From a virus (Duplodnaviria; Heunggongvirae; Uroviricota; Caudoviricetes), in the IMG/VR virus record IMGVR_UViG_3300020718_000007, positions 84,390 to 148,389 of that record: a stretch of DNA of 64,000 nucleotides. One strand, written 5' to 3'. The notes under the pieces were generated by a model. The model saw only the letters and a program-made list of their open reading frames with translations, did not search any database and was not told where the DNA came from. The position numbers were made by a program, and so were the translations under genes. Shown here one piece after another: positions 13,637-41,538 of the stretch (the first letter of the stretch is position 1; every line of letters starts with the position of its first letter).

Positions 13637-14407
13637 ATGACTATGAATATTTATAAAATTACTAATTTACTAAATGGTAAAATTTATATAGGACAGGAAA
13701 AAAGAGATAATCCAAAATATTTTGGTAGTGGTAATCTTATAAAAGAAGCTATTAAAAATGAAGGTATAGAAAATTTTCGGAAGGATATCATAGAAATTTG
13801 TAATAGCGTGAAAGATCTGAATGAACGAGAAATATTTTGGATAAAAGAATTAAAATCACAGAGCAAAGAAATTGGATATAATATAGCTCCTGGTGGATCC
13901 TTATTTGTTATGAACGAAGAAATTGCCAAAAAAGTTTCTGATACATTAAAAGGAAAATATGTTGGTAAAAAAGCATTTAGACATGGATTGAAATTATCTG
14001 ATGAACATAAAAGAGCTATTTCCCTTAAAAATAAGGGTCTAAGATTATCTGAAGTAACTAGAAGAAAACTATCACAATCACATAAAGGTAAAAAAGTTAC
14101 GGATCTAACTAAAGAAAAATTATCACTATCACATAGAGGAAAAAGATTAACAGAAAATCATAAAAGTAAGATAGGAATAGGACTTTTGGGGAACAAGCAT
14201 AGTGTAGAAACTAAAGAAAAAATAAAAAAATCTAATATAAATAAAAAACAGAAACATTCTGTCTCTCTCGATGCTATAAATATAAATACTAAAGAAATAT
14301 TATATTTTAATAATATTTCTCAAGCTTCGAGATTACTGGGTTGTACGAGATTTCGTATTAAAAATAATTTGGTTATTGGATGGAAAATAATACTGAATAA
14401 TATGTAA
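13637..14407 (+). mobile_element. GIY-YIG homing endonuclease gene (Seg/I-TevI-like) with NUMOD3-like repeats
   Basis: N-terminal IYKITNLLNGKIYIGQ ... ENFRK (GIY-YIG motif); repeated basic motifs KRAISLKNKG / RRKLSQSHKGK / KEKLSLSHRGK / HKSKIGIGLLGNKHS. Confidence 0.75.
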
Positions 14408-14578: not shown

Positions 14579-15940
14579 GTGGATAAGAAATCTCCAATAT
14601 GGAAAATACCAATCGGACTTTGGTCCGAAGTAATGGCAATTGCCGAGAAGTATAAACTTGAATTAGAAATAGAGGGTTTAGATAGAATAATTGATAAGGA
14701 ATTAACGCTCGAGGATTTCACCGCCTGGGCTAATGAATTTTTTGCGGATAAGAAATTCAAGCCATATGATTACCAATTAAAAGCAGCTTGGAATATAATT
14801 AGATTTAAGTTTTCCGTCTTGGAGATAGCAACTTCTAGTGGTAAAACATTAATAGCTTTTATCGTTCTTGCTTATTTAAAAATGGTAAAAGGTATTAATA
14901 AATTCCTAATGATAGTTCCTAATACTACCTTGATTATGCAAGGAGCAGAGGATTTTGAGGAATATGGTTTAGAGGAAGTAATGGGATGTGATTTACAAAT
15001 GATCCATGGGGGAAATAAGAATAAAAAATCCTCTGGTTTAATGATAGGTACTTATCAATCATTAGTAAAACAAGATGAGAGCTTCTATGAAGGAGTTGAA
15101 GCAGTATTTGTTGATGAAACCCATCAGGCATCTAGTAAATCTATTAAAGATGTAGTTTCAAAATGTAAAGAAGCCAAATATAGATTTGGTTTATCTGGAA
15201 CACTTACAAATAGAAAAACTGCAGAGTACCTAACAATCCAACAATTTTTGGGACCATTAGTAATGGAGATTAGCCCAGAATTTCTATTCAAGAATAACTA
15301 TGCAACCCCGGTTGCTATTAAGGTTGTTAAAATGGATTGGCTGGAAGAGGATATTAAACAAAAATTAGCAGAGCTAAAAAAGAACAAAACTGAGGTAGAA
15401 GGAAATGATGTTTTTAATATTGAAAGGAAATTAGTTGTTAGTTCTGATAAAAGACTAAATTTCGTGGTTAATTTTATCAAGAAGACCAGTAAAAATTCAC
15501 TAGTCCTATTTCAGTCAGTTGCAGACGGATATGGAAAAAGAATATATGAACAATTAAGAGAGGTACAAAACGAAAAAGAGGTTTATTATATTGATGGAGA
15601 TACCGATGCTAATCATAGGGATTATGTAAAGGGATTAATGGAGTCTGGGGAAAATAAGATATTAGTTGCTTCTTTTGGAACTCTTTCTACCGGGGTATCT
15701 ATTAAGAACTTACATAACATCTTTTTATGTGAATCTTATAAATCAGAGGTACTGATTAAACAAAGTTTAGGCAGGGGTATGAGAAAATTAGAAGGTAAGG
15801 AAAAAGTTAATATTATTGACTTTGTTGATGATTTTTCTTGGGGTAATACCATGAATTATCTTCTAAAACACTCCTTTGAACGTATAGAAATCTATAGAAG
15901 GGAGAGATTTGACTTCAAGATTTTTGAGGTCAAGTTTTAG
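14579..15940 (+). CDS. SF2 DNA helicase, UvsW-like (DExH)
   Basis: Walker A ATSSGKTLIAF, DExH box VFVDETHQAS, helicase C motifs (QSLGRGMR); GTG start as given by the ORF track. Confidence 0.55.
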   Translation: MDKKSPIWKIPIGLWSEVMAIAEKYKLELEIEGLDRIIDKELTLEDFTAWANEFFADKKFKPYDYQLKAAWNIIRFKFSVLEIATSSGKTLIAFIVLAYLKMVKGINKFLMIVPNTTLIMQGAEDFEEYGLEEVMGCDLQMIHGGNKNKKSSGLMIGTYQSLVKQDESFYEGVEAVFVDETHQASSKSIKDVVSKCKEAKYRFGLSGTLTNRKTAEYLTIQQFLGPLVMEISPEFLFKNNYATPVAIKVVKMDWLEEDIKQKLAELKKNKTEVEGNDVFNIERKLVVSSDKRLNFVVNFIKKTSKNSLVLFQSVADGYGKRIYEQLREVQNEKEVYYIDGDTDANHRDYVKGLMESGENKILVASFGTLSTGVSIKNLHNIFLCESYKSEVLIKQSLGRGMRKLEGKEKVNIIDFVDDFSWGNTMNYLLKHSFERIEIYRRERFDFKIFEVKF

Positions 15941-17118: not shown

Positions 17119-19005
17119 ATGGCAGGGATAAAGTATCTAACGGACATTTATAGGAAGCAGGGTAAGGAATTTTTAGATAACCTTTTCAAGAAAACAGTGG
17201 TAATAACAGAAATGTTAAATGGATCCTCTTTTTCATTTGAAAGGAATATTAATGATGGAGAAATATCTTTTTATAAAAGGGACCAATTAAACCCCATAAC
17301 AAAAATCGATAGGACCTTAATGAGGTATTATGAACCACCAATTAGGTTCATAAATAATCTTCCTAACGAATTAAAAGATGAAATACCATTAGGGTGGAGA
17401 TTTGGAATGGAATATTTTATAAACAGTAATCCAATTTCTATAACTTATGATAGATTACCTAAAAATAATCTAGTACTAACCTATATCCTAGTTAAGGATG
17501 ATTTTGGAGAAGTAGAAAGGACCATTGTAGACAAAAAAGAGCTAGACCATTGGGCAGAACTCCTAGGTATAGAAAAACCACCAATTATCTTCCAGGGGAA
17601 GATGAACGACGAGCAGAAAGTTAAGATACAAGAGTTCTTAAGTGTGCCATTTGACACTTTAAGCTATCAATACGGCACGAATTCCTTTGCCAAATACATT
17701 ATATCAATACTTAATCCTGCGCTTAAAAAAACAACGTTAAACGACGATTTAGATAAGCCCATAGAAGGGATAGTATTTAAGTTTGGATCTTTAGATGGGC
17801 AGGGAGAAACAGTAAGTGCTAAAATGGTAGATCCTGTTTTTGCCGAGATTGCAAAAGAAAATGAGGTTAAGAGTGAAGGATTTTTCCCTAATGATATTTA
17901 TGGAATTACTGTACTAAATGTTATGAATTTCATTCTTGAAAAAGGATTGGAGCATTTTGAATATACTGGCGATGAAATAGAGGATAGGTATATCTCTTTT
18001 ATTTGTAATGTTTTTGAAAAATTTGTAGATGAGTATGGAGAGGATTATAGAGGAGTAGATTTTGAAGAACCCTCTTATTTAAAGGGTGAAGGATTCCAGG
18101 CTAATATAGATAACATATCTTCTGAAAAAACCAGAAAATTAGTCCAGGAAGAAGAAAGCTACGAATCTTTATTTAAACTAATACTATCTGCATTTAGAAA
18201 ACTAAAGAAAAAGACTGGTGGATTTTTTAATAGTGGATCAATCCAACAATTCAATATATTAGTTCGTGAAATAGCGGATTATTTGAATAACCTGCAAGAA
18301 GTAGTAGAAAGTGGCATACCAACATTTGGCGAATTTAGAAAGGAAAGCAAGAATATTCTTATTGAGGAAAGTGAAGAACCAGAAGAAGAGCCGGGTGATA
18401 ATGATGATGCTACTGATTTAATGGACCAAATTAAGGGAAGTATAGAAACCCCATTAGATAATAAGGATCCTGATGATAAAACAACTCATCATGACGAGAA
18501 AAAGATGGTCAATTTAGTAATAGGAGATTTCCAACCATTTAATAATGGTGATTTAAAAATAATCCAAAGAACTAAACAAGAGAACCATTTACCTATCGTA
18601 CTAGCAGTAGTAGAACCTCAAGAAGGTTCAAAGAAATATCTATTAGATTTAGATACTTTAAAGAAAAGTATGGTATCCGTAGCAACAGAATTCCAAGATC
18701 TGATAGAAGATGTTGTATACATCCCGAATAATTTATTGTCTACTGCATTAGATGCTTTAGGAGAAAAGTATAATGTGGTCGGATTAACTACCCAGAAGGA
18801 TGCTTTTGAAAACTATGTTCTACAGAAGAAAAGTTTAATTAAGAAGGGAAAGTTAACCCCTGAATTCCACATATATTCTACCCCCCAATGGAATAACTCT
18901 ACTGAAATTCGTGAGTTAATAAATCGTCAGGATTTTGTTAATTTCAAGAAAAATGCACCTAAATCTATTGTGTATCTTTGGCAGGAATTCATTAAATTTG
19001 CTTAA
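17119..19005 (+). CDS. hypothetical protein with Rnl1-like N-terminal region (motif-I Lys replaced by Met) and degenerate cytidylyltransferase/NMNAT-like C-terminal motif
   Basis: VVITEMLNGSSFSF versus T4 Rnl1 ILTKEDGSLVSTY; EGIVFKFGS resembles ligase motif IV EGYVAV; C-terminal VIGDFQPFNNGDLKII resembles the G.F.PFH.GH motif with both His residues replaced; acidic linker. Confidence 0.35.
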   Translation: MAGIKYLTDIYRKQGKEFLDNLFKKTVVITEMLNGSSFSFERNINDGEISFYKRDQLNPITKIDRTLMRYYEPPIRFINNLPNELKDEIPLGWRFGMEYFINSNPISITYDRLPKNNLVLTYILVKDDFGEVERTIVDKKELDHWAELLGIEKPPIIFQGKMNDEQKVKIQEFLSVPFDTLSYQYGTNSFAKYIISILNPALKKTTLNDDLDKPIEGIVFKFGSLDGQGETVSAKMVDPVFAEIAKENEVKSEGFFPNDIYGITVLNVMNFILEKGLEHFEYTGDEIEDRYISFICNVFEKFVDEYGEDYRGVDFEEPSYLKGEGFQANIDNISSEKTRKLVQEEESYESLFKLILSAFRKLKKKTGGFFNSGSIQQFNILVREIADYLNNLQEVVESGIPTFGEFRKESKNILIEESEEPEEEPGDNDDATDLMDQIKGSIETPLDNKDPDDKTTHHDEKKMVNLVIGDFQPFNNGDLKIIQRTKQENHLPIVLAVVEPQEGSKKYLLDLDTLKKSMVSVATEFQDLIEDVVYIPNNLLSTALDALGEKYNVVGLTTQKDAFENYVLQKKSLIKKGKLTPEFHIYSTPQWNNSTEIRELINRQDFVNFKKNAPKSIVYLWQEFIKFA

Positions 19006-19154
19006 TGGTAAACATCATTAAATATATTTAACGTTTTCTTAACAATATGAAATTTTTTAGTCAGAACTTTTTATGTACCTTTACATATATTTTCAATTAT
19101 ATATTATAGTGAGTGAATTCCTAATGTAACTATAATTTCACAAATATTTTCTAA

Positions 19155-20474
19155 ATGAGTCAAACCGTTCCGGTCAAAACAAAACAGCAGCTCCAAGAAG
19201 AAGAATGGAACTCCGTATCAGCACGGGCTGGTAGAAAAATGATGAGATGCAAGGTTCAACTTGGTAACAAGCAGCCATTTTTTGGTAATCTTATAATGCA
19301 CCTTAAGGTAGAAGAAAAACTTGGTCTTAAATATAAGACTATGGCTACCGATGGTAGACACTTATTTTATGATCCTGACTTTGTGATTTCCAAAACAGAG
19401 GAGGAAATAAAATGGGTAATCTGTCATGAAGTAATGCATTGTGTACTCAAACATTTTATGAGGAGACAGGCAAATCCAGATTATTGGAATGCTGCTGCAG
19501 ACTATGCCTTAAATCAATTAATTTCCGATCTTCCAGATGATTGTGGAAAAATGCCAGAAGAGGCATTATTGGAAAAGAAATACGAAGGTTGGACTGCAGA
19601 AATGATTTATCAATACCTTCTACAAAATAATATTGACTTACCGCCTGATTATGTTACTGGAAAAGGTAATTGTACATGGAGGCTTGGTGAAGTAGAAGAT
19701 CCGCCACCCCCGCCACCTGGTACTGAACCAGCGGAGGGCGAAGGAGAACCCGAAGAAGGAGATATGAAGGTTATTGAAAGTGATCTTAGTGACCCTGAAA
19801 AATTAGGGGATTACTGGGATGACGCATTAAAGGATAGTCTTAATAAGAATGCTGGTAATATGCCCGAAAATTTCCGGAGGAAATTGTTGAAATTATTACA
19901 GCCACAAATTGACTGGAAGAATGCACTGAGGAGGTTCATTATATCCCTCGGGGAAAAACACAAATATGATATTCCTCACAGGAGGTTTATTGGGAATGAT
20001 GATATTCAGTGGACAAGGACACCAACAAAATCAACCTTTGATAGTTTTGTATTGATAGCAGATACATCAGGATCAATAGGTCAAAAGGAATTAACCGGAA
20101 TGGTTAGTGAGGCATATGAAATAGTTAAAAATTTCAAGCCAAAACATATACATCTAATGTGGTGTGATGCTACTCTTCATTTACCAGTTGATGTTGTAAC
20201 TCCAAAAACCATGCATTTACTCCATGCACCAAAAGGCGGCGGAGGAACAGATTTTAGACCTCCATTTAAATGGATTAAAGAAAATCTCCTTGGTAAGAAA
20301 ACTTTAGGTCCAATAATATACTTTACCGATGGATTTGGTCCATTTCCAACAGAAAAGGAATTTGGTATCCCAATGTACAAGGACAAAGTAATTTGGGTAA
20401 TTGTAGGAACACAAGGATACATGAATGATAGTGTCAAAATACCATTTGGAACCAGACTTAATTTAATTTTGTAA
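19155..20474 (+). CDS. VWA-domain protein with N-terminal HExxH metallopeptidase-like domain (DUF2201/VWA type), MoxR partner
   Basis: HEVMH zinc-binding motif; C-terminal MIDAS-like FVLIADTSGSIG; followed by a MoxR ATPase gene. Confidence 0.6.
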   Translation: MSQTVPVKTKQQLQEEEWNSVSARAGRKMMRCKVQLGNKQPFFGNLIMHLKVEEKLGLKYKTMATDGRHLFYDPDFVISKTEEEIKWVICHEVMHCVLKHFMRRQANPDYWNAAADYALNQLISDLPDDCGKMPEEALLEKKYEGWTAEMIYQYLLQNNIDLPPDYVTGKGNCTWRLGEVEDPPPPPPGTEPAEGEGEPEEGDMKVIESDLSDPEKLGDYWDDALKDSLNKNAGNMPENFRRKLLKLLQPQIDWKNALRRFIISLGEKHKYDIPHRRFIGNDDIQWTRTPTKSTFDSFVLIADTSGSIGQKELTGMVSEAYEIVKNFKPKHIHLMWCDATLHLPVDVVTPKTMHLLHAPKGGGGTDFRPPFKWIKENLLGKKTLGPIIYFTDGFGPFPTEKEFGIPMYKDKVIWVIVGTQGYMNDSVKIPFGTRLNLIL

Positions 20475-20495
20475 TTTTTAAACACCCAAATAGAA

Positions 20496-21818
20496 ATGGC
20501 TAAAACCACGAACGAAGCAAAAACAACAGATGGATTAGGCGATCAAAAACTACTCGCCCATCTACGAAGCCCATGGAAAAGTGTACCAGACTTATCCGCG
20601 GAAGAAATCATGCAAGATCTAATGGATGATTATTCCATCTTAGTTGATACGGGATGGCAAAAACCTATGTTCATTTATGGTGCACCTGGTATTGGTAAGA
20701 CCGAGCTGGTTGCACAGGTCTGTGAAAAATTAGGAATCGGCTTTATGCCAGTAGAACTAAGATATTCACAACCGGTAGACCTTATCGGAGTACCTAAAGT
20801 AATTGAATCTGCTACTTCTAAGTCAGCTCATGGTAGTGGCGTAACAAGGTCAAATCCTCCTACCTTCTGGCCAAGAAGTAACTGGCCTGGTGGAATTATA
20901 CCAGAAGGAAAAACGGAGGAAGAAGGTCCGGGTGGAGCTATATTCTTTGATGAATTTAACCGTGCCGATCCATATGTTATGGATTCACTAATGCAATTCG
21001 TACAAACAAGAACACTTCCTGGTACTGATTATGTTCTTCCTTCCCGTTGGATGGTAGTAGCAGCCGGTAACAGACCGAAAGATGATCGTGCAGAAAAAAT
21101 CAGGGATTTAGGTTCAGCGATGATTGACCGGTTTACACTTGTAAACTATGTAGCTACACCAGAAGGCTTGTTAAGGCACATCGAAACTTATCCTAAGAAA
21201 ATAATGTATGATAAATGCCTTGGACAATTAGTAATTCCCGAACTTATCACATTTATCAAACATATGCCAGAATTTTTCCACGGCGCATTTAACGAGGATT
21301 CTGACGATATGGGTAATTTTACTCCACGTGGTTGGATTGATGCTTCTAAAAAGCTCGAAGGCTATCTTCAGCAGAGGATTAAGGATAAGAAAAAGAGGGT
21401 GATAACAGAAGACCAGCTTCGTAAAATCTTTACAAAAGAAATAGGAACAGCAGCTTCTAATGCCTTTTTGGAATATTATCAGCTTGCCCAGGAATTCTCA
21501 TTTGACGATATAGGCAAAGTATTTAAGGACCCTCAAAATGCACCTACTCCTGGTAAGAAAGGAAATAGCTTCATTCCTAATAGGATGTGGGCGTGGACAG
21601 CAGCAATTGTTAACCATGCAGAGAAATTAACTGCTGATCTTACACCGGAAGAATGGGCAAACTTCATCAAGTATTGGATAATGATTGATGCAGCCGATTA
21701 TGCCACTGCTGCCATGTCTATGATGCTTGTTCATGTACCTTATATCAGGAAGAAAAAGGTATACTACGAACAATTATCTCTTTGGGAGAAGCATTATAAG
21801 AAAATGATGCAGGAATAA
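20496..21818 (+). CDS. MoxR/CbbQ-type AAA+ ATPase (AAA_5)
   Basis: Walker A YGAPGIGKTEL; Walker B/sensor AIFFDEFNRADP; VGVPKV and AAGNRP segments typical of the MoxR family. Confidence 0.7.
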   Translation: MAKTTNEAKTTDGLGDQKLLAHLRSPWKSVPDLSAEEIMQDLMDDYSILVDTGWQKPMFIYGAPGIGKTELVAQVCEKLGIGFMPVELRYSQPVDLIGVPKVIESATSKSAHGSGVTRSNPPTFWPRSNWPGGIIPEGKTEEEGPGGAIFFDEFNRADPYVMDSLMQFVQTRTLPGTDYVLPSRWMVVAAGNRPKDDRAEKIRDLGSAMIDRFTLVNYVATPEGLLRHIETYPKKIMYDKCLGQLVIPELITFIKHMPEFFHGAFNEDSDDMGNFTPRGWIDASKKLEGYLQQRIKDKKKRVITEDQLRKIFTKEIGTAASNAFLEYYQLAQEFSFDDIGKVFKDPQNAPTPGKKGNSFIPNRMWAWTAAIVNHAEKLTADLTPEEWANFIKYWIMIDAADYATAAMSMMLVHVPYIRKKKVYYEQLSLWEKHYKKMMQE

Positions 21819-21907: not shown

Positions 21908-22450
21908 ATGGAATTTTTAAAGTATTTCAAAGCCTATATGTTGAACGAGGAAGAAGGACTTGGTAATAACTATTTCCATGTAAAGAAAATGGACAAGTCT
22001 TATGATTACTTCTTTAAGATAGGTGATAAAAGTGAGCATGAAAGGGCATTTATAATCAAAATAGGTAAGTTTTCTAAAAACGATATTATAAATGATACCG
22101 AACAATCTTATGCTGTCCTTTCTATTGAGGAAATATCTCCAGAATCTATGGATGCTTTTCTGATAGACGAAGCACCATTTAAGTCAACTGAAAATGAGAT
22201 GATTAGTGTTACAATGGATGAACTAACTAAGATTTCGAATATTTTAGAAAGGGCATTGGATGATTATTTAGAGAAAAGTCCTAAAGTTACTAAAATTTAT
22301 GACGAATTTCTAGAAAATATTGAGATAGGAACAGAGGAATATGTTAATTTTACTAAGAACACAATAAGCATTTGGTCAAAAGGAAGATGGAATACTCAAA
22401 GCGGTTCTAATCCTAAGTCTATCCTACATACTAAGTTATCCCATAATTAA
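21908..22450 (+). CDS. hypothetical protein
   Basis: 180-aa ORF. Confidence 0.4.
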   Translation: MEFLKYFKAYMLNEEEGLGNNYFHVKKMDKSYDYFFKIGDKSEHERAFIIKIGKFSKNDIINDTEQSYAVLSIEEISPESMDAFLIDEAPFKSTENEMISVTMDELTKISNILERALDDYLEKSPKVTKIYDEFLENIEIGTEEYVNFTKNTISIWSKGRWNTQSGSNPKSILHTKLSHN

Positions 22451-22523: not shown

Positions 22524-22700
22524 ATGGAGACTTACAACAAAATTGCAGAATTAGTGCAATCAATGAAATCAGAAGCAGACAAATTTTTTGGAAGGGGAAA
22601 TAAGGCAGCAGGAACAAGACTTCGGGCTCAGTGTCAGGAACTTAAAGAATTAACCCAGTCATTAAGGGTGGAAGTACAAGAAGCCAAAAAATTAGAATAA
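22524..22700 (+). CDS. small basic histone-H1-like DNA-binding protein (Bacteroidota type)
   Basis: 58-aa ORF absent from the ORF track: METYNKIAELVQSMKSEADKFFGRGNKAAGTRLRAQCQELKELTQSLRVEVQEAKKLE; the GNKAAGTRLRA core resembles Bacteroides histone-H1-like proteins. Confidence 0.5.
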   Translation: METYNKIAELVQSMKSEADKFFGRGNKAAGTRLRAQCQELKELTQSLRVEVQEAKKLE

Positions 22701-22730: not shown

Positions 22731-22946
22731 ATGAGCTATTATCTTTGTAAAATTACCTTCGATTCTGGAGAGGTAAGTAAATCCGGTAAACCAATAGTAA
22801 CTAAGACACAGATCTTAGTAGAAGCAGAGAGTGTAACCCATGCGGAAGCATTAGCAACCGAACATGTAGGAACTGGTATTTCTACCGCAGAAGTCACCTC
22901 GATAAACAAGTCACAGATAGAATCTGTCTTGAAATTGAATGACTAA
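22731..22946 (+). CDS. hypothetical protein
   Basis: 71-aa ORF. Confidence 0.35.
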   Translation: MSYYLCKITFDSGEVSKSGKPIVTKTQILVEAESVTHAEALATEHVGTGISTAEVTSINKSQIESVLKLND

Positions 22947-22949
22947 ACT

Positions 22950-23186
22950 ATGAAAAAGGCAAAAAAAAGCAAAGGTGCAGATATAAGTAACTATACTCCT
23001 CCTGATAATTCTGTAAAAATACAGGACGGGGACACCGGTTTTGCTTTAGTTAAGAAAAATTATCACAGATTTATCTGGACTTGGAATGATTACGCCAAGA
23101 AAGGTAAAAAGAAATAAACAATTTGTTTGTTTGTTTACATTGTGTGGCCCCGAGGTTTCTACCTTGGGGTTTTTTCTATTTATCTG
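22950..23186 (+). CDS. possible small ORF (Lys-rich N-terminus, hydrophobic C-terminus)
   Basis: 78 codons by manual translation; not in the supplied track; its 3' part reads through a terminator hairpin, so it is doubtful. Confidence 0.2.
23147..23175 (+). terminator. rho-independent terminator
   Basis: stem CCCCGAGG/CCTTGGGG with loop TTTCTA followed by TTTTTTC. Confidence 0.55.
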
Positions 23187-23967: not shown

Positions 23968-25386
23968 ATGATAATCGACATTGAAAATTTAGGAGAATCG
24001 CTAAGAGTTTCCCATTATACGACAGAAGGGGATGTTGCTTTCTTAGATCTTCCAATCCCAGAGAGAGACCGATATGTTTGGAAAAGAGCATCTCCCGGAG
24101 ATAGAGGAGTTATTAAGGATTGGAAAACCTGGGATAAACAACCAGTAAAAGTCCAAAAGACACAAAAATATGATAAGTTTAGAATTACAGAAATTCTGGA
24201 ACAGTATGACAAAAAGGTAACCAAACCTTTATGGGAATATCAGACTCCACGAAAATATTGGGTGGATATAGAAGTTGAAGTTACCGATAATAAAGCGGAT
24301 TCCCTAGATACTTCAAAGGCAGCAAACAAAATACTAACATTAGCTATTGCATCTTCCTCTGGAAAGATACTTGCCTTAGGTTTAAAGAAATTAGAGCCCG
24401 ACCAAATCCTAAAAATAGAAAAGAAAGTAAACGAGCATTTCAAAAAATTTGATGCTAAGTGGACTTTTAATTATAGGAGTTTTGATAGCGAGTTTGATAT
24501 GATCTATACCTTCATGTCAAAACTAATGCACAAGATGCCATTAATAAGTGGATGGAACTGGTTTGGATATGACTGGCCTTATTTATTATCCAGAGCAAAA
24601 AGGTTAGGTATAGATCCTAAGATTTGTTCTCCAAGCGGAGTATTGTTAACTAAGCAACAAATCCCAATGCATGGTCTTATGGTCGATTACATGGAGATCT
24701 ATAAGAAATGGGATAGGGTAATAAAAGTTAGAGAAGCAAACTCTCTGGAATATGTTAGCCAAGCAGCATTCGGAGTAGGTAAAGTAAAATATAATGGTAA
24801 TTTAAAATCTCTTTATGAGGATGATTTTGAAAACTATGTATTCTATAATGCAGTTGACTCCTGCCTCTTAGATTATATTGACCACAAACTAAATACATTA
24901 TCAACTTTCTTTAAAATAGCATTGGTAACTGGTGTAGAAATTAATAGGGCACTATCTCCTGTATGGACAACAGAGGTTCTAATGTTAAGAGAATTCTTAT
25001 CCAGAAAGAGAGTTATTCTATACGAACAAAAGGACGAAGATACAAGAAAATTTGAAGGAGCGATTGTTAAAAATCCAATCAAAGGATTACATGAATGGAT
25101 TTCTCTTTATGACTATGCTTCTCTGTATCCAAATGCAATGATCCAGTTTGGTATCTCTCCTGAAATCTATATCGGCAAGGATTTAGAAAATCCGCCACCA
25201 GGATCATGGAAAACAGCATCCGGAGCATATTTCTGTCCAGAACCAGGTGAAGAGCCTGTATTGAGAAAAGTATTACAGACCTTATATGGTATGCGTAAAA
25301 CTACCAAAAGTAAGTATATGGATTGCGAAATGAAAATTGAAGAACTAAACAAAATATTAAAAAATAAAAAAACTCAAGTAGTATGA
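23968..25386 (+). CDS. gp43-N: family-B DNA polymerase, N-terminal fragment (3'-5' exonuclease motifs plus polymerase motif A), T4 gp43-like
   Basis: Exo I region DIEVEV, Exo II region FYNAVDSCLLDYID (T4: ISYNIIDVESVQAID), motif A LYDYASLYPNAMIQ (T4: FDLTSLYPSIIRQ); the ORF stops about 70 aa after motif A, with no motif B or C. Confidence 0.8.
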   Translation: MIIDIENLGESLRVSHYTTEGDVAFLDLPIPERDRYVWKRASPGDRGVIKDWKTWDKQPVKVQKTQKYDKFRITEILEQYDKKVTKPLWEYQTPRKYWVDIEVEVTDNKADSLDTSKAANKILTLAIASSSGKILALGLKKLEPDQILKIEKKVNEHFKKFDAKWTFNYRSFDSEFDMIYTFMSKLMHKMPLISGWNWFGYDWPYLLSRAKRLGIDPKICSPSGVLLTKQQIPMHGLMVDYMEIYKKWDRVIKVREANSLEYVSQAAFGVGKVKYNGNLKSLYEDDFENYVFYNAVDSCLLDYIDHKLNTLSTFFKIALVTGVEINRALSPVWTTEVLMLREFLSRKRVILYEQKDEDTRKFEGAIVKNPIKGLHEWISLYDYASLYPNAMIQFGISPEIYIGKDLENPPPGSWKTASGAYFCPEPGEEPVLRKVLQTLYGMRKTTKSKYMDCEMKIEELNKILKNKKTQVV

Positions 25387-25955: not shown

Positions 25956-28900
25956 GTGGATTATTCTATAATCAGTATAAATAAGCAGGTAATGAAGAAG
26001 AAAATAATTTATATTGCTCCTCACCTCTCTACTGGAGGACTTCCCCAATATCTTTTCAAAAAAATCGACCTATTAAAGGATAAACTTGAAATATATTGTG
26101 TGGAATATAACGATATAACAGGAGGACAACTTGTAGTACAAAAGAATAGGATTCAGTCTATATTGGATGGTAAACATTTTATTACACTTGGCAGTGATAA
26201 GAATGAACTTATTAGACTAATAGAAAGGATTAAACCTGATTATGTCCATCTGGAAGAAATTCCAGAGGATGGTGGATGGGGTTGGGCGAAGGGTACGTTG
26301 GAAAAAATATATTCTCTGGATAGAACTTATAAAATATTTGAAACTAGCCACGATTCATCATTTGAACCAGACACAAGAAAAATATATTTTCCCGACGCAT
26401 TTTTCTTTGTTAGTAAATGGCAAATAGATCAGTATAAGAATATTAATGTTCCTAAGTATTTGGCAGAATATCCTATAGAATATAGGGAAAGACCAGATAG
26501 GAATTCTTCACTAATTAGCCTGGGATTAGACCCATCCAAAAAACACATTCTTAATGTTGGCCTATTTACACCAAGAAAAAACCAGGGTGAAATATTTGAA
26601 ATTGCTAGATCTTTTGGAGAAGATGTACAATTTCATTTTCTTGGAAACCAGGCAGGTAATTTTGAATCTTATTGGAAACCTTTAATGGCAAATATACCAA
26701 AAAACTGTAAATGGTGGGGTGAAAGAAATGATGCAGATAGATTCTATTCCTGTATGGATCTTTTCTTGTTTACCTCGGAAGGTAATCCAGGAAACAAAGA
26801 AACAATGCCATTAGTTCTAAGGGAAGCCATAGGATGGAAAATGCAAATCCTATTGTATAATCTTGATGTGTATCAGAATTATTTCAATAGATTTAATAAT
26901 GTTACCTATTTAAATGAAGGAAATAAAAAAGCTAATGTAGAGCTTGTTAAAAAAATGATAAGCTCTAATTATATAGAATTTGTAGAAATTGAGGAGGGGC
27001 CAAACGTAAAATATTTTTCTGGTAATTATGACAGGGAGAAAAATATAATTTACTTTGAGGTAATAAATGAGCATCCAACTTTAAAAAAATTCAATTATCG
27101 GCTTAGAGATTTTGTTAATGGATTAACATTTCAACCAATTGGAAGAGATTATGATTTCAAAAAAGGTATAACATTTAATGTTGGCCCTAATGCTCGTAAT
27201 GATGACCATAATGGGCTTATCCTAGAATTGTTTGATGGTAATGAAAATATTATTGAAACCCATACATACGAATCTTGGGGTAAAGTTAAAGGAAGTTGGG
27301 ACCCTTTAAGATACCCCAAAACAGAATTATGGATTAACGATAAACTCGTGAAGCTACATAGTCATCCAAATGATCATTCATCTTTTTGGAGCTATTACGA
27401 ATGTGTTCTTCGTGGGGATTATAAGGGCATAGAATCTGGTGATATAATAGTTGATGTTGGTGCAAATCTCGGATTTTTCAGCCTTAGCGCAATTAAGCAA
27501 GGTGCTTCTAAAGTATATGCTATAGAACCTTTTCCAGAAACATTCGATTATTTAACTAAAAACATAGAGGGATTACCTATAATCCCATTAAATTATGGAA
27601 TAGGAGATTCAGAAAAAGAAGCTGTATTTGTTGGAGGTGAAGTTACTTCTATCACACGTCTAGCCGAACTGGAAGAAAAACAAAATGATGGATTTTATGG
27701 AATTAATAAAACACTTACAAAAGTAAAATTAAAGCCATTTAACCAAATTATAAAAGAACAAAATATACAATTTATTGATTATCTAAAGATAGATTGTGAA
27801 GGAGGTGAAGAAGCTTTATTTAATACGATAGATCCTGAATATTTAAAATATAGGATTAAAAAAATAACAGGAGAATTACATTTACGATTAATTGGTGTTG
27901 ATGTGTATAATAAAATAAAATCTCAGCTTATCGAAGCTGGATTTGATTACAATGACGATTATACTCAGAATAAAGATATGGTTATCTTTTATGCAGAAAG
28001 GAAGCCAAAAATTAAATTAGTTCATATAATAAATAATCCAGAAGGGGAAAGAGAAAAATTATCTACTAAATCCTTATCTGAATTAACCAAATATGGAATA
28101 GAATATGAAAGACATATCACTCCATTATACACAAAAACTCCGCCTGCTGAAAATTGTAATAGACCATCCCAAGTTTCTCCTGTTCCCGGTGATTATTTAT
28201 TATCTCCTGGACATTATGGATGCTATTTAGGACATAAGGATGCAGTTTGCAATACCTTCGGTGATTTTGATGGATTATTAGTTTCTGAATGTGATGCTAT
28301 AATACAAATTCCTGCTAAGGAAATGGCAGAAAAAATAAAACAAACCTATTTCGATAATATTAAAAACGATCTAATACTTACAAGTTATGGAAAGTCTCTT
28401 CCTGGTTATCCTCATACTCATGTCACTGAGGATCTTTTCTGTTCGCAGAAAATAGTAGAAGCTCATTTGTATTTAATCTCTAGGCCTCATTTAGATACTC
28501 TAAAAGAATTATTTGCAACTAAGCCATGGGATGTATCAGATCTATGGTATGATACGTTCCTTTCTTCTTATAAAAGAGGAATTTATAAAAAACCATATGC
28601 TCTTCAGGCTAGAGGAGAATCATATTTGGATAAAACATACAAGGATGGCTATATAATCCATGACCATAGTGTTATTTATGATCCAAATTTTATCGATAAC
28701 GATATAACCGTTATTATTCAGACCTGTGATAAGTATAGAAATTTTTGGAATGGCTGGTATTTGGCATGGAAAAATAATTGGAATTGGGATTTGAAATGGC
28801 CAGTCGTATTTTGTAATGAGGAAATGGATTTACCTTTTAATGATCCAAGGATAGGTCAAATAAAATCCCCTGTTTCGAAAGATAAGAATGGATTTTCAAA

Positions 28901-29402
28901 TAGACTGAGTGATATTTTAGAAAAGGTTAAAACAAAGTATGTTCTTTATATTCAGGATGATATGTGGCTTACAAATAGTGTTAATTTTTCTACATTTAAG
29001 GAAGCACTTTATAAGGTAAGATATAATGATTGGAATTGTTTAAGATTACATGAAAAGATTTGGTTAAATTATACATTGGAAAAAACTAGGCATTTTGTAA
29101 ACGAGAAAAGAGTATTGAAAATGAAGAGTACTAGTGAATGGTTACTTACTCATAATGCGGCTATTTGGAATAAACAATTTTTAATGGAATCTATATTACC
29201 TGATGAGGACCCTTGGACAAATGAAGTAGAAGGTGGAGTCAGGATTTCTAAAAAATATACTGATCCTAAAATTTATCATCTCAATGAGAGATGGTATTAT
29301 CAACCAGGAGCATCCCAGAATGGTATCATAAATTCATTTATGGAACAATATCAAAGGTACCTGCAATACGCAGAAGATTTAAAACAAGAAATGGACATAT
29401 AA
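25956..29402 (+). CDS. giant multi-domain glycosyltransferase (GT4-like, FkbM-type methyltransferase, GT25-like, C-terminal unknown domain)
   Basis: GT4-type E..G..EA.A.G motif (NPGNKETMPLVLREAIGWKMQ); FkbM methyltransferase motif DVGANLGFFSLSAIKQGASKVYAIEPFPETF; GT25-like HYGCYLGHKDA; 1148 aa. The TATAAATA at 25975 suggests the real start may be the internal Met at 25992. Confidence 0.6.
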   Translation: MDYSIISINKQVMKKKIIYIAPHLSTGGLPQYLFKKIDLLKDKLEIYCVEYNDITGGQLVVQKNRIQSILDGKHFITLGSDKNELIRLIERIKPDYVHLEEIPEDGGWGWAKGTLEKIYSLDRTYKIFETSHDSSFEPDTRKIYFPDAFFFVSKWQIDQYKNINVPKYLAEYPIEYRERPDRNSSLISLGLDPSKKHILNVGLFTPRKNQGEIFEIARSFGEDVQFHFLGNQAGNFESYWKPLMANIPKNCKWWGERNDADRFYSCMDLFLFTSEGNPGNKETMPLVLREAIGWKMQILLYNLDVYQNYFNRFNNVTYLNEGNKKANVELVKKMISSNYIEFVEIEEGPNVKYFSGNYDREKNIIYFEVINEHPTLKKFNYRLRDFVNGLTFQPIGRDYDFKKGITFNVGPNARNDDHNGLILELFDGNENIIETHTYESWGKVKGSWDPLRYPKTELWINDKLVKLHSHPNDHSSFWSYYECVLRGDYKGIESGDIIVDVGANLGFFSLSAIKQGASKVYAIEPFPETFDYLTKNIEGLPIIPLNYGIGDSEKEAVFVGGEVTSITRLAELEEKQNDGFYGINKTLTKVKLKPFNQIIKEQNIQFIDYLKIDCEGGEEALFNTIDPEYLKYRIKKITGELHLRLIGVDVYNKIKSQLIEAGFDYNDDYTQNKDMVIFYAERKPKIKLVHIINNPEGEREKLSTKSLSELTKYGIEYERHITPLYTKTPPAENCNRPSQVSPVPGDYLLSPGHYGCYLGHKDAVCNTFGDFDGLLVSECDAIIQIPAKEMAEKIKQTYFDNIKNDLILTSYGKSLPGYPHTHVTEDLFCSQKIVEAHLYLISRPHLDTLKELFATKPWDVSDLWYDTFLSSYKRGIYKKPYALQARGESYLDKTYKDGYIIHDHSVIYDPNFIDNDITVIIQTCDKYRNFWNGWYLAWKNNWNWDLKWPVVFCNEEMDLPFNDPRIGQIKSPVSKDKNGFSNRLSDILEKVKTKYVLYIQDDMWLTNSVNFSTFKEALYKVRYNDWNCLRLHEKIWLNYTLEKTRHFVNEKRVLKMKSTSEWLLTHNAAIWNKQFLMESILPDEDPWTNEVEGGVRISKKYTDPKIYHLNERWYYQPGASQNGIINSFMEQYQRYLQYAEDLKQEMDI

Positions 29403-29403
29403 T

Positions 29404-32400
29404 ATGGTAACGAAAGATAATTTACTGATTTGCTCTGTTAGGTGGAGCGAAGATTCACCTGGATTTAAGAACGCATTCTATACTCCAATTGAGCAATATA
29501 ATAATACAGGCTTAACCTATAAAATTTTCCAATACGAAAAGGAGCCTGAAATGGAAGCTCTATTTATTCAACGATATGGTTGGTTGGGTGAATATATTTA
29601 TTATAGGGTTTTTAAGTTATACGAATCTTTAAGGAAAGAGATAAAGGAAAATAATTATGACTATATCTTATTTATAGATTATAATGATACTATGTTTGTT
29701 GGTAATGCCAGAGAATTACTAATGAAGCTCAATCAGGTTAAAGCTGCCACCCTTCTGGGTGGAGAAATAACTAAATTTCCAGATGAGAAGATAACAGACC
29801 TTTGGCCAAATCCTATAACATTTGGTGAAGGTCCACATCTAAATGCTGGTATGCTATTTTCTAAATCATTAGACCTATTAATAATACTTAGAGATGCTAA
29901 AGAATTAATCGAAAAGCAACATATCCCATATACTAGTTGTCAAGGAGTATGGCAAATAATGTACCATTCTAATAAGTACGATATTCAAATTGATGAGAAT
30001 AATGAAATATTTTATAATTTGTATGGTAGAGAATTGAATAGGGATTATGGAATAATGAAAAATCATAGATTGGTTGTTTCTAATTCTACGATATGTCCAT
30101 TATTTATACATCAAAATGGTTGGCCCCATACGAGAGGATTAATAGATTTATTTGGTGAACCATTTAAAGAATATAATGAGTCCAGAAAGAAATTATCCTC
30201 CACAAAATTATCCATCGTAACTTCTTATTATAATTGTGAGAAATTCATAGAGGAACAAGCAAAATCTATATTGAGCCAAACATATACTAATTGGGAATGG
30301 ATTATTTGTGACGATTTTTCAACAGATGGTACTAAGAAAAAACTAATAGAGCTTGCTAAATCTGATTCCCGAATTAAATTAGTGGAGCAGAAACACAAGA
30401 AAGAGGTTTGGTGGAATCCACAAATTCATGCAACTGGTTCTATAGTATGTCCGATAGATGGTGATGATAAGATATTACCCAAGACTTTTGAAAAGATAGT
30501 CTATTATTTTAACAAATTTCCTGATATTGTATTACTACATTTCAATGCCAATAAATATAATGATGTCCTTCCACAGAGAAAAGAAGACATTATAGACAAA
30601 TTCCTTGATAATGTTTATATTTCAAGGGACAATATTTCTTTCTTGGATGCTTTTGAAAGGTTATGGCATCAAAGGTCTTGTATTTTTGGATATTTACGTA
30701 TTTTTAGAAATTTACCAGGATTAAATTTCAAAGTTCATCCTGATGGTGATGCCTGTTCGTCTAATGATGGTCAGTGGCTTTTATATTTAGAAGAAAGGGG
30801 AAAATGCTTGGCTATACCCAGAACTACTTATATAGCTAGGAATCATGGAAACTCTGAGAACTATCGAAATTGGAACATTAGGGGTGAGGCTAATCTAGTT
30901 ACTGATACGCAAAAAAGAAGGCAAGGAATGGACCTAGAAATGCCTAGAATCAGTGATTATTTCAATGAGGTATATGTAGCTGCAGAATCTACATATCTGA
31001 GCCAATTGAATTGGGAATCCGAGAGTAAAAAGATTTGTTTCTTTAACTATCAATACTCCGAAAGACAAAAGTTAAAGTTGAAAGAATTGTTCTTCGACCA
31101 TGAAATTTTCTTTGATGGAAATGATAAAATGTATGATTATTGCTTTATTCGGATAAGGCAAGATAGTGTTGAATCCGAGATAATGGAAATAATGGAACGT
31201 GTTTCGGGAAGAGTTAATCTTTATTGTGATAATGTTCATTTGCACCAGAATAATAGAACTGGTAAAAATACGCTCAATGAGATCAGGGATTCATTGGCTA
31301 AGAAATATAATTTCTATTGGAACATTCAAGAGAATAGAGGGATAATCTATGTTTTTGATAGTATTAAAGGAGATAAAATAGATAAGAAGATAATGGATGA
31401 TGTTTTATTAAAAGGGTATGAAGAAACTCCACTAGTAGTTAAAGAAACTAAAGAAGTAGGAAATGAGTGCTTCTTTACTTTTATTGATGGACCAAAAGTA
31501 ACAATCAATGGACCAAAGGATGCTGAATATTTGGTAAAATTTATAGACCTAGATACCCAAAAAGAAGTCTTCACTTCAATAATTAGGAACAACCACTGGA
31601 CAGCATGTTCGGTTAAGTATTGTATGCCTTGGGTGATAGAAGTATATGAAAATAATATCCTCTGGCAAACTCATAAATTTGACCCCAAGGGTAAGAGAGT
31701 CTATATACATTTAGATTCTAATTCTCTCGGGGATACACTTGCATGGGCACCATATGCAGAAGAGTTTAGAAAAAAATGGGATTGTAATGTTATTTTTTCT
31801 ACTCATCGTAACTATTTCTTTGAAGGACAATATCCGGAAATAGAAATGGTTAAACCTGGCACGATTGTTAATAACCTTTATGCAAGTTTTGGCATAGGTT
31901 GGTATTATGATCAAGCAGGTAATGTAGAAAGATATAAAAATCCTTATGATTTTAAAAGCTATCCCCTACAACAGACTGCTACTGATATTCTAAATATGGA
32001 TTTTGAAGAAGTCAAACCAAAACTTAAGATTAAGGATAAAGGTAGAAAAGTTCCTGGTAAAAGGCCATATGTTTGTATAGCTCCCCATGCATCGGCACTA
32101 GCAAAATATTGGAATCTACCGAATGGATGGCAAGGCCTAGTTAATCATTTAAGGAATGAGGGATATGATGTTGTTATGATTACTCAGGAAAAATTGGGTA
32201 ATCCATGGGATGATGGAAAAATAGGTGGAAAACTAACAGGGGTAATAGATAAAACTGGGGATCGCCCATTAGAGGAAAGGATTAATGATATTAAACATGC
32301 CGCTGCTTTTATTGGTGTTGGTAGTGGATTAAGTTGGTTAGCATGGGCAATAGATACCCCAGTATTAATGATTTCAGGATTTAGCGAAGAATGGACAGAG

Positions 32401-32601
32401 TTTACAAAAAATTGTGTTAGAGTAATTAATGAAACTGGTTGTAGAGGATGCTTTAATCGTGCAAGGTTAGATGCTGCAGATTGGAGGTGGTGTCCTGACC
32501 ATAAGGATACGGATAGACAATTTGAATGCACTAAATTAATATCATTGGAACAAGTTATAAATTCATTTAATAAACTAGAAATCAAAAGAAATGAGCAATA
32601 A
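29404..32601 (+). CDS. giant multi-domain glycosyltransferase (GT2 domain plus GT9 heptosyltransferase-like C-terminal domain)
   Basis: GT2 signature LSIVTSYYNCEKFIEEQAKSILSQTYTNWEWIICDDFSTDGT; C-terminal CIAPHASALAKYW...IGVGSGLSWLAWAIDTPVLMISG resembles GT9; 1065 aa. Confidence 0.6.
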   Translation: MVTKDNLLICSVRWSEDSPGFKNAFYTPIEQYNNTGLTYKIFQYEKEPEMEALFIQRYGWLGEYIYYRVFKLYESLRKEIKENNYDYILFIDYNDTMFVGNARELLMKLNQVKAATLLGGEITKFPDEKITDLWPNPITFGEGPHLNAGMLFSKSLDLLIILRDAKELIEKQHIPYTSCQGVWQIMYHSNKYDIQIDENNEIFYNLYGRELNRDYGIMKNHRLVVSNSTICPLFIHQNGWPHTRGLIDLFGEPFKEYNESRKKLSSTKLSIVTSYYNCEKFIEEQAKSILSQTYTNWEWIICDDFSTDGTKKKLIELAKSDSRIKLVEQKHKKEVWWNPQIHATGSIVCPIDGDDKILPKTFEKIVYYFNKFPDIVLLHFNANKYNDVLPQRKEDIIDKFLDNVYISRDNISFLDAFERLWHQRSCIFGYLRIFRNLPGLNFKVHPDGDACSSNDGQWLLYLEERGKCLAIPRTTYIARNHGNSENYRNWNIRGEANLVTDTQKRRQGMDLEMPRISDYFNEVYVAAESTYLSQLNWESESKKICFFNYQYSERQKLKLKELFFDHEIFFDGNDKMYDYCFIRIRQDSVESEIMEIMERVSGRVNLYCDNVHLHQNNRTGKNTLNEIRDSLAKKYNFYWNIQENRGIIYVFDSIKGDKIDKKIMDDVLLKGYEETPLVVKETKEVGNECFFTFIDGPKVTINGPKDAEYLVKFIDLDTQKEVFTSIIRNNHWTACSVKYCMPWVIEVYENNILWQTHKFDPKGKRVYIHLDSNSLGDTLAWAPYAEEFRKKWDCNVIFSTHRNYFFEGQYPEIEMVKPGTIVNNLYASFGIGWYYDQAGNVERYKNPYDFKSYPLQQTATDILNMDFEEVKPKLKIKDKGRKVPGKRPYVCIAPHASALAKYWNLPNGWQGLVNHLRNEGYDVVMITQEKLGNPWDDGKIGGKLTGVIDKTGDRPLEERINDIKHAAAFIGVGSGLSWLAWAIDTPVLMISGFSEEWTEFTKNCVRVINETGCRGCFNRARLDAADWRWCPDHKDTDRQFECTKLISLEQVINSFNKLEIKRNEQ

Positions 32602-40377: not shown

Positions 40378-41538
40378 ATGGCGGCAGCAACGACTAAAAA
40401 CTACTATACCGCTCTTGGTGTAGAAAAAAATGCTAGTCTAGATGAGATTAAAAAAGCTTATAGAAAATTAGCAATGGAGTTACATCCGGATAGAAATCCT
40501 GGTGATAAAAAATCTGAAGAGAAATTTAAAGAAGTAGCAGAGGCTTATGAAACCTTATCTGATATAGATAAGAAAAGTAAATATGATAAGTCTTGGTCCC
40601 CTGGCTATGGATATGGAACACCACCGTCACCGCCAAAACCAGAATCTCCCTATGACGAATACGTAAGAAGGTCAGGTAAAAGGGAATCATATAATCCAAA
40701 TCCTTTCGGAGGTGGATGGGATGATCCTTTTAGTGATTTTGATACTTTCTTTAATGCCAGAACCTCTAAACAACCACCTCCAAAGAAAAAGAAAGGTCAG
40801 GGAATATCTATTAATATTCCTATAACTGTTGCTGAGATGGTAACTGGTGTACAAAAGAAAATCAAACTGAAACGTAATGTTAAGTGTGGACCATGTAAAG
40901 GTACAGGAGCGCAGGATGGAAAATCATTCCAGAAATGTGGACGTTGCGGTGGATCTGGTTGGGTAAGAAGAATAGAGGATTTTAGTTATGGTGGAAGTGG
41001 AAAACAAACCAGATGTGATCAGTGTAATGGAGAAGGAAAAGTAGTACTTGAATCTTGCCATGTATGTAATGGAGGAAAAACAGAACTAAAAGAGGATATT
41101 ATTGATATCAATATACCAGCAGGTTCTATTGCTGGTATGCAATTTATTATTGCAGGAAAAGGACATGAAGAAAATGGAGCAGCGGAACCAGGAGATTTAA
41201 TAGTTTTTATTAAGGAACTTAATGAAGATGAGTTTATTAGATCTGGAACAAATCTAAGAGTTATACACGAAATACCTTTATTAGATGCTATATTAGGTTG
41301 TAAGATCAAAGTGAAAATGCCAATGGGGGAAATAATACAAACTATTGTAGAGCCTGGTACTACCCATGGAACTATTTTACAATTTCCGGGTAAAGGAATA
41401 CCTGATATAGGTGCAGGAACTAAGGGTGACTTTTTGGTAGAAGTTCGTATTAAAATTCCTATACCAAAAACTAAAGAAGACTATGATTTATTAAGTGACT
41501 TGAAAAAGACTAAATTGTTTGGAAATGATAATGACTAA
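40378..41538 (+). CDS. dnaJ: DnaJ (Hsp40) co-chaperone, type I
   Basis: J domain [35 protein letters not shown] (HPD motif); Gly/Pro-rich linker; four CxxCxGxG Zn-finger repeats ([31 protein letters not shown]); C-terminal substrate-binding domains. Confidence 0.8.

Follow-up and report, generated by a model that had tools for sequence, protein, structure and literature searches.

The gene pair at the locus

Two adjacent genes, at positions 19155-21818 of a 64,000-nucleotide stretch from a tailed-phage genome (Caudoviricetes; IMG/VR record IMGVR_UViG_3300020718_000007, positions 84,390 to 148,389; here called the window), encode a DUF2201-type protein, in which a zincin-type metallopeptidase domain is joined to a VWA domain with a metal-ion-dependent adhesion site (MIDAS), and a MoxR-class AAA+ ATPase. 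Both open reading frames (ORFs) lie on the + strand, with a spacer of 21 bp between them. The pair had been picked out in an earlier reading of the same DNA made from its letters alone (the sequence-only reading). Its genes, domains and motifs are listed below, with residue numbers in amino acids (aa).

19155..20474, + strand: VWA-metallopeptidase gene (DUF2201-type, N4 gp25-like), 439 aa
19212..19634, + strand: zincin peptidase domain, aa ~20-160, with HEVMHCVLKH at nt 19425-19454
19494-19505, + strand: AADY with the conserved Asp116, in the zincin domain
19626..19796, + strand: acidic Pro/Gly-rich disordered linker, aa ~158-214, net charge -12, predicted local distance difference test (pLDDT) 50-61
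20016..20471, + strand: VWA domain with complete MIDAS
20061-20075: MIDAS residues D303-x-S305-x-S307 (DTSGS, aa 303-307)
20235-20249: MIDAS T365 in GGGGT
20322-20333: MIDAS D392 in FTDG
20496..21818, + strand: MoxR-class AAA+ ATPase gene (N4 gp24-like), 440 aa
20679-20702, + strand: Walker A GAPGIGKT, aa 62-69
20943-20966, + strand: Walker B and MoxR signature FFDEFNRA, aa 150-157
21060-21071, + strand: sensor 1 AAGN
21123-21134, + strand: Arg finger IDRF
21321-21335, + strand: sensor 2 TPRGW (the motif stretch overall spans 20679..21335)

Domains and motifs of the two proteins

The DUF2201 protein matches the Pfam families DUF2201_N (E 8.7e-31, 108 bits; cut-off 23.2) and DUF2201, which is VWA-like (E 2.3e-13, 50.8 bits; cut-off 26.4), confirming the assignment made in the sequence-only reading, and the HEVMH and DTSGS motifs lie where that reading had placed them. 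Its PHROG match is phrog_1314 (E 1e-75). Judged from the protein sequence, the label 'HNH endonuclease' carried by this PHROG is evidently wrong; no HNH domain was detected in the VWA-metallopeptidase protein. Together with 'putative anti-sigma factor', the label has spread to many GenBank and PHROG records of homologues.

The protein was aligned with 34, and then 89, homologues down to 26% identity, with N4-like, Asteriusvirus and huge-phage members included. HEVMH occupies aa 91-95 (nt 19425-19439) within an overall HEVMHx4H pattern, in which 87/89 homologues retain H91 and 85/89 the catalytic E92; H95, H100, R103 and D116 are invariant in 89/89. The five MIDAS residues (D303, S305, S307, T365 and D392) are likewise invariant in 89/89. 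Loss of the HExxH and MIDAS motifs on profile alignment, a possibility that the sequence-only reading had left room for, was not observed. That the MIDAS is never lost, while the catalytic Glu is missing in ~4% of homologues, suggests that binding or remodelling is the core activity of the protein and proteolysis its usual output.

Finer placement of the N-terminal domain was sought among the known zincins. The domain profile gives weak matches to M48 (PDB 3c37, E 0.008) and to the minigluzincin MJ1213, and weak matches to Pfam SprT-like and Peptidase_M48 are each present in 16/21 N-domain sequences (best E 1.2e-5 and 4e-5, respectively). These weak profile matches are consistent with a small zincin, a predicted peptidase with no finer placement. 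The linker that follows is 20 to 110 aa long across the 89 homologues, its abundant residues being G, D, P, S, Q and E. A PDB sequence search with the whole protein returned no match; structure comparison of a confident predicted model gives a VWA fold for the C-terminal domain, near the Midasin MIDAS, BchD and NorD. Directly before the VWA core lies a conserved segment containing R276-R277, which is, on its sequence and position, a candidate for a pore-inserting element like the VWA finger in NorQD.

The ATPase, comprising an AAA+ core (aa ~30-260) followed by a helical C-terminal domain, matches Pfam AAA_5 (E 4.8e-9, 36.8 bits; cut-off 22) and AAA_3 (28.3 bits; cut-off 27), and its PHROG match is phrog_1297, 'ATPase' (E 2e-41). 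Thirteen residues are invariant in 93 homologues (G62, P64, G65, G67, K68, D152, E153, N155, G191, N192, R212, P277 and W280). The PDB sequence search gave P-loop-level matches only, none below E 0.05, and an NCBIfam search of the pair gave no meaningful match; the predicted model, which is confident, finds its best structural matches in NorQ and CbbQ, with RFC structures ranking lower. On its motifs and predicted fold, the protein is thus a MoxR-class AAA+ ATPase with intact catalytic motifs, and the MoxR/CbbQ-class assignment that had been read from GAPGIGKT and FFDEFNRA stands. The quoted motifs of both proteins are kept in homologues down to 20-26% identity, so their conservation goes far beyond chance.

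Two other classifications of the ATPase were considered and rejected. A gp44-type clamp loader, which the sequence-only reading had named as the alternative, is not supported: the SRC motif is absent from the sequence, the match to phrog_168 (8.5e-6, against 2e-41 for phrog_1297) covers the P-loop region only, and NorQ and CbbQ outrank clamp loaders in the structure comparison. A CobS/CobT pair was dismissed because the match to the CobS-like phrog_249 (E 2e-9) is confined to aa 45-105 around the P-loop and because the partner is DUF2201, not CobT. Among ATPase homologues of ~500-590 aa, most have an N-terminal extension of ~100 aa with the consensus start M..RIKKF..FVNE.Y; the window ATPase and its closest relatives are without it (homologues P0126, P0128-P0210).

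Distribution, coupling and gene order

Homologues of the DUF2201 protein were found by tblastn in 385 isolate-phage records, among them N4-like podoviruses, Asteriusvirus, PA5oct, V5-like phages and others, and an exhaustive profile search (E <= 1e-10) places the family at 25,160 clusters at 50% identity. Among the carriers of the pair are N4-like, Asteriusvirus, PA5oct, V5-like and huge phages. The window protein shares at most ~30% identity with any isolate-phage homologue, the best matches being in Asteriusviruses, and megablast of the pair against isolate phages gave no nucleotide-level match.

The coupling of the two genes was measured with hidden Markov models (HMMs) built from our own alignments and run against the six-frame ORFs of 80 viral and 80 cellular loci, an ATPase being counted as coupled when it lay within 4-5 kb on the same strand. 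Such an ATPase is present in 68/80 viral loci; 10 of the 12 others lack the upstream flank, giving 68/70 evaluable loci. The corresponding count for cellular genomes is 69/80, with 7 of the 11 others truncated upstream (69/73 evaluable). The two genes are therefore strictly coupled, in viral contigs and cellular genomes alike.

An ATPase of the same family lies directly 5' of the DUF2201 gene in the N4-like phage Moo19, in Asteriusvirus Ecwhy_1 and in the 462-kb phage LR756500, and this order, ATPase then DUF2201, is general; it is inverted only in the clade of the window (the window, L004-L010 and L024). Within this clade, the surrounding block is syntenic down to 41% identity and runs gp32, helicase, RNA-ligase-like, DUF2201, AAA, a 180-aa ORF, Hc1, DUF4494, the N-terminal half of a family-B DNA polymerase (PolB) and dUTPase. 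A sister clade carries the peptidase ORF and the linker-plus-VWA ORF as separate, adjacent genes, split at the linker, with the ATPase next. Split ORFs of this kind were seen at L010:4001-5753 and L024:3875-5713, with a peptidase-only protein of 270-285 aa and a VWA protein of 309-323 aa, and proteins of corresponding size are numerous in databases (~261 aa with PF13203 only, and ~300 aa).

In 86 loci (36 viral and 50 cellular), a protein of ~285 aa that belongs to no Pfam family is encoded between the ATPase and DUF2201 genes, and it may be a third component of the module. Examples lie at L011:3163-4008, L172:7300-8124 and L175:8114-8977, with the motifs AGRYNK, TLPW.D.G.R.LP and DFRV. Searches with HMMs and hhalign found no counterpart in the window, and the protein is absent from the window's clade, the N4-like phages and Asteriusvirus; the 180-aa ORF downstream of the pair and the N-terminal extension of the ATPase homologues were rejected as counterparts, being unrelated to it. 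Many of the cellular loci have RNase H, Gp157 and PolA close by and resemble the replication module of a prophage. Elsewhere the setting differs: L175 is a prophage in which the genes stand beside terminase, portal and capsid genes, and L173 has a toxin-antitoxin pair in a defence-island-like region.

Functional data on related pairs

A transposon screen of the V5-like phage Bas54, described in the HIDEN-SEQ preprint (bioRxiv 10.1101/2025.11.20.689424), found that bas54_0063 (MoxR) and bas54_0140 (99 aa) are specifically required against DS-28, a predicted defence system of Escherichia coli CFE311, and a Bas54 MoxR knockout was specifically sensitive to cloned DS-28. The supplementary tables of the same preprint show the Bas54 MoxR and metallopeptidase-VWA genes to be non-essential on K-12, with insertions in 60/64 and 81/86 TA sites (~94%). 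In the comparison of K-12 with the clinical strain CFE311 (supplementary file 9), the MoxR gene has a log2 fold change (log2FC) of -7.23 (q ~0) and the metallopeptidase-VWA gene one of -2.20 (p 0.0009, q 0.009). The screen speaks against the pair being indispensable for replication or assembly, at least in V5-like phages, and in favour of a host-specific accessory role. In supplementary file 9, one TRANSIT command (BW vs 311) appears in both Data S6 (K-12 vs CFE303) and S7 (K-12 vs CFE311), and the values do not differ between the two sheets; what is presented as the CFE303 table thus seems to be the CFE311 table repeated.

The membership of the Bas54 genes in the present family was established through orthologues in Bas57, a close relative of Bas54: the Bas57 MoxR protein matches the profile of the window family (hhalign 99.9%, E 2e-35), and the Bas57 'putative metallopeptidase' consists of DUF2201_N and DUF2201. 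The link between the two Bas54 genes and the wider family is drawn here and not by the authors of the preprint.

Further evidence comes from virion proteomes obtained by electrospray ionization tandem mass spectrometry (ESI-MS/MS). The MoxR ATPase gp265c of phAPEC6 was detected with 6 peptides (19% coverage), and the ATPase of PA5oct, a homologue within the family (hhalign E 1e-44), was flagged as detected. The VWA-peptidase partner is not among the proteins detected in either proteome. Thymidylate synthase is on the phAPEC6 virion list, and the authors of the PA5oct study give a count of 7 'virion-unrelated enzymes'; as both lists hold non-structural enzymes, carry-over of the ATPase is plausible. 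A literature search found no report on the essentiality of N4 gp24/25, and neither the phiKZ transposon paper nor a second transposon preprint deals with phages that carry the pair.

Genomic setting and phage lineage

The other annotated features of the window are as follows.

13637-14407: GIY-YIG/NUMOD3 (SegE-like) homing endonuclease ORF, just 5' of the helicase gene
14579-15940: ResIII/DEAD helicase (Pfam), an upstream neighbour of the pair
17119-19005: RNA-ligase-like ORF, 628 aa, weak Pfam match (26.2 bits vs cut-off 27)
19006..19154, + strand: AT-rich gap of 149 bp 5' of the pair, with one sigma-70-like match at 19080-19107
21908..22450, + strand: 180-aa ORF directly 3' of the ATPase gene
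22524-22700: Hc1 histone-like (chlamydial-type histone H1-like) protein, 58 aa, Pfam E 4e-20
22731-22946: DUF4494 protein, the next gene after Hc1
23968-25386: PolB N-terminal ORF, 472 aa (exonuclease and start of polymerase domain)
25956-29402: giant ORF, 1148 aa, glycosyltransferase 1 and FkbM methyltransferase
29404-32601: giant ORF, 1065 aa, GT2, GT9 and PLOD-type glycosyltransferase
35742-36992, minus strand: DUF7487 protein, E 5e-61, the only large minus-strand ORF of the window
37132-38931 and 41892-43319: subunit genes of topoisomerase II (topo II)
40378-41538: full-length DnaJ (J domain, Zn-finger domain, C-terminal domain), between the topo II subunit genes
44120-45286: PolB C-terminal ORF, 388 aa, ~18.7 kb from the N-terminal ORF

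The neighbours named in the sequence-only reading (helicase, ligase-like and histone-like genes) are present as described, with the qualification that the ligase-like match is weak: the match of the ORF at 17119-19005 to the RNA-ligase N-terminal family does not reach the Pfam cut-off, and at aa 466-561 there is a faint match of nucleotidyltransferase-like (CoaD) type. This ORF stands directly 5' of the pair in all 9 loci of the window's clade. The 180-aa ORF on the other side, which has no match in Pfam, PHROG, PADLOC or NCBIfam, holds the same position in 9 loci of the clade; it is probably co-transcribed with the pair and is at most a candidate member of the module. The gap at 19006-19154 is possibly a promoter region, on the weak evidence of its sequence; the sigma-70 consensus may not be that of the host, and in the promoter and terminator scan the match counts in the region did not exceed the shuffled expectation. 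Downstream of the pair, the scan found no terminator-like site before 23146-23171. Hc1 and DUF4494 keep their position in every relative examined.

The window holds a T4-type replication set (gp32, UvsW-like helicase, topo II subunits and a split family-B polymerase) and, beyond it, full-length DnaJ, the giant glycosyltransferase/methyltransferase ORFs, Hc1 and DUF4494. The N-terminal half of PolB is closest to those of 460-735 kb metagenomic huge phages (31-36% identity) and Lak megaphages (30%), and contigs of 206 kb and 474 kb carry close homologues of the pair. Judged by these genes, the phage appears to be related to huge phages and to have replication genes of T4 type, rather than to be T4-like in the classical sense. 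The earlier designation 'T4-like' therefore holds for the replication module (gp32, UvsW-like helicase, PolB and topo II) and is only loosely right for the phage as a whole, because the nearest relatives by PolB are huge and Lak phages. The host probably belongs to Bacteroidota, given the presence of Hc1 and DUF4494, the lack of a Shine-Dalgarno sequence and the nature of the relatives.

Between the two PolB halves lie the dUTPase, giant glycosyltransferase, topo II subunit and DnaJ genes, and relatives carry an ORF for the N-terminal half of equal size (468-472 aa) in the same place. The two giant ORFs at 25956-29402 and 29404-32601 suggest, from their predicted domains, elaborate glycan modification. 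The stretch containing the DUF7487 ORF is locally AT-rich, with a GC skew near zero.

Proposed function and alternatives

We propose, tentatively and at a little under an even chance for the explanation as a whole, that the two genes encode a single two-protein machine. By analogy with NorQ, CbbQ and RavA, the ATPase would form a hexameric ring, on which one copy of the partner, acting as adaptor and effector, would dock through its C-terminal VWA domain. The metal ion of the MIDAS would, on the NorQ-NorD model, grip an acidic residue of a target protein, and ATP hydrolysis would pull or twist the flexible acidic linker of the adaptor such that the zincin is positioned or activated; the N-terminal zinc peptidase may then cut the held target or a neighbouring protein. 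The role of this machine would be accessory, with a host protein, plausibly a defence or abortive-infection factor, modified or destroyed. Because Bas54 provides the sole functional data for the family, the accessory reading leans on that phage; taken together with the machine, such a role in host interaction or counter-defence comes close to an even chance in our estimate without reaching it, and a core function for the pair in replication or capsid assembly is less likely. The pair is probably co-transcribed inside the replication-gene block, and N4 gp24/25 are expressed with middle timing (PMC4193335), both of which argue that it would act before late morphogenesis.

A broader version of this proposal, which we regard as doubtful, extends it to the whole family of N4 gp24/gp25 type, the huge-phage pair included, as a widespread counter-defence machine, found in podo-, myo-, jumbo and huge phages and in prophages, of an ATP-dependent 'anti-defence protease' class that has so far gone unrecognized. 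A host protein of immunity or abortive infection would be caught by the MoxR ring through its MIDAS adaptor, to be inactivated by the tethered zincin. The basis for this extension is that the Bas54 ATPase was validated against DS-28 and that its partner was co-depleted in the same strain.

Several observations weigh against the proposed machine and role. For every member of the family, substrate, interaction and protease activity are so far predictions, and the protease model is drawn by analogy. The functional evidence is one preprint on a homologue of ~26% identity, from another phage family and with a host of another phylum; that preprint validates the ATPase only, its authors are silent on the partner, and the effect of the partner is much weaker. 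The catalytic Glu is lost in 4/89 homologues and the MIDAS in none, so proteolysis may not be the core activity. In addition, a gene in the core set across phage families, with ~25,000 clusters, is unusually conserved for a counter-defence gene, and the presence of the ATPase in the phAPEC6 and PA5oct virions fits a role in assembly.

Such a role, in which the MoxR-VWA couple folds or assembles a structural protein that the fused zincin processes, was proposed by Iyer et al. (2021) for the same pair in group 2.2 jumbo phages (PMC7824862). The detection of the ATPase in purified virions by ESI-MS/MS, the analogy with the MoxR-VWA pair of Acidianus two-tailed virus in tail development, the second structural module near the gp24/25 homologues of roseophage RPP1 (PMC4193335) and the terminase, portal and capsid genes beside the pair in the L175 prophage are all in its favour. 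However, the Bas54 pair is dispensable on K-12 and thus not needed for infective virions there, the partner went undetected in both proteomes while carry-over could account for the ATPase, and the pair is placed among the replication genes, well away from tail-fibre genes, both in the window and in its relatives. N4 gp24/25 are, moreover, middle genes, and the tail types of the carriers are unrelated (podo-, myo- and prophage-like), so that we consider an assembly function unlikely. Proteases of SprT/Wss1 type work with the AAA+ protein Cdc48, and on this model the pair could instead serve replication by extracting and cleaving proteins stuck on DNA (trapped topoisomerase, crosslinks or nucleoid proteins). 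The company it keeps is suggestive: gp32, helicase, RNA-ligase-like, PolB and dUTPase genes in the window, dCTP deaminase and thymidylate synthase in N4-like phages and Asteriusvirus, and PolA, SNF2 helicase, PDDEXK, RNase H, Gp157 and Nmad5 in other viral and cellular loci. The SprT-like matches of the N-domain point the same way but are no stronger than those to M48 and reflect nothing beyond the zincin core that these families have in common; no DNA-binding domain was detected, the Bas54 genes are non-essential on K-12 and the contexts of L173 and L175 are not related to replication. Overall, removal of DNA-bound proteins appears rather improbable.

The remaining two alternatives draw on bacterial MoxR-VWA couples. 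The pair might be a chaperone of the NorQD, CbbQO or CobST type that inserts a metal cofactor into, or activates, a phage or host metalloenzyme as an auxiliary metabolic function, and it is true that, among solved structures, the ATPase is nearest to NorQ and CbbQ, that NorD and BchD are among the VWA matches of the partner and that phrog_249 (CobS-like) gives a partial match. The N-domain, however, is a zincin with a conserved catalytic Glu and not of NorD, CbbO or CobT type, no target enzyme gene (nitric oxide reductase, Rubisco or chelatase) was found in the window or among the recurrent neighbours of 160 related loci, and the CobS-like match covers aa 45-105 only, around the P-loop; this explanation is very improbable. 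Equally remote is a phage-borne vWA-MoxR conflict system, serving for example in superinfection exclusion. MoxR-vWA cores do occur in bacterial ternary conflict systems (Kaur et al. 2020; PMC7159879), a connection made in the sequence-only reading, and the chromosomal homologue L173 lies in its defence-island-like region. That connection is unsupported: PADLOC returned nothing for the VWA-peptidase and only P-loop-level noise for the ATPase, the bpMoxR profile scored 18.7 bits against a cut-off of 27, there is no VMAP, iSTAND or effector third gene and the neighbours are replication genes. In Bas54, furthermore, the polarity is reversed, the ATPase being needed by the phage against a defence of its host.

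The accessory host-directed machine thus remains our preferred explanation. The statement in the sequence-only reading that the function in infection is unknown is largely still true, although the 2025 preprint gives a first hint, towards anti-defence. Few phage gene pairs that lack an assigned function are conserved as widely as this one; if the Bas54 result generalizes, a common and often mis-annotated pair would be a counter-defence or host-remodelling protease, with relevance to host range in phage therapy and to finding the defence systems that are targeted. Placing the anti-defence MoxR of Bas54 in the N4 gp24/gp25 family, together with the co-depletion of its partner, makes a long-standing 'conserved unknown' directly testable. 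For the window itself, the gain is mostly a correct annotation and a lineage-specific rearrangement.

Comparison with known systems

The pair is already known: it is the N4 gp24/gp25 pair, and it was described in jumbo phages in 2021. In N4-like phages, gp24 (AAA ATPase) and gp25 (vWFA) are two of the 14 core genes and are middle genes (PMC4193335, PMC2784036). The window pair shares with these Schitoviridae the same two protein families and same-strand adjacency. In Moo19, the ATPase is followed by a DUF2201_N + DUF2201 protein (Pfam 2e-64 and 1e-35) that is 26% identical to the window protein and keeps all its motifs. The N4-like pairs differ from that of the window in gene order (ATPase then DUF2201), in protein size (376 and 351 aa, compared with 439 and 440 aa) and in residing in a 70-kb podovirus rather than a huge phage.

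The MoxR-vWA(metallopeptidase) 'chaperone-cochaperone pair' of group 2.2 jumbo phages (for example Asteriusvirus phAPEC6 gp265c/gp264c and PA5oct; PMC7824862) has the same architecture and belongs to the same families, but to another phage lineage and with the gene order opposite to that of the window; in PA5oct, four genes, including a homing endonuclease, lie between the ATPase and DUF2201 genes. The same two families, recognized through the Bas57 profile matches, are also represented in the Vequintavirus Bas54 by bas54_0063 (MoxR) and bas54_0055 (metallopeptidase). Here ~3.6 kb separates the genes, which lie on divergent strands; the host is E. coli, and the MoxR protein is ~26% identical to the window ATPase over aa 55-318.

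Among cellular couples, NorQ-NorD serves as the mechanistic model for the proposed machine: a VWA finger plugs the pore of the hexamer, NorQ remodels the linker of NorD and surface carboxylates of the target are required. The authors of that work suggested that MoxR/VWA couples in general bind in this way (PMC9976466, PMC13036017). The window protein is laid out like NorD, with an N-domain, an acidic disordered linker and, at the C-terminus, the VWA domain, and departs from NorQ/NorD and CbbQ/CbbO in that its N-domain is a zincin peptidase and sequence similarity is at superfamily level only. The Acidianus two-tailed virus also has a viral MoxR and VWA couple, with a reported role in tail development (PMC7824862, PMC7159879); set against the window pair by description only, it differs in being without the peptidase domain and in belonging to an archaeal virus. 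The window pair is thus a divergent member, in a huge-phage lineage, of a known family, its presence unsurprising to a specialist and its inverted gene order a lineage-specific rearrangement.

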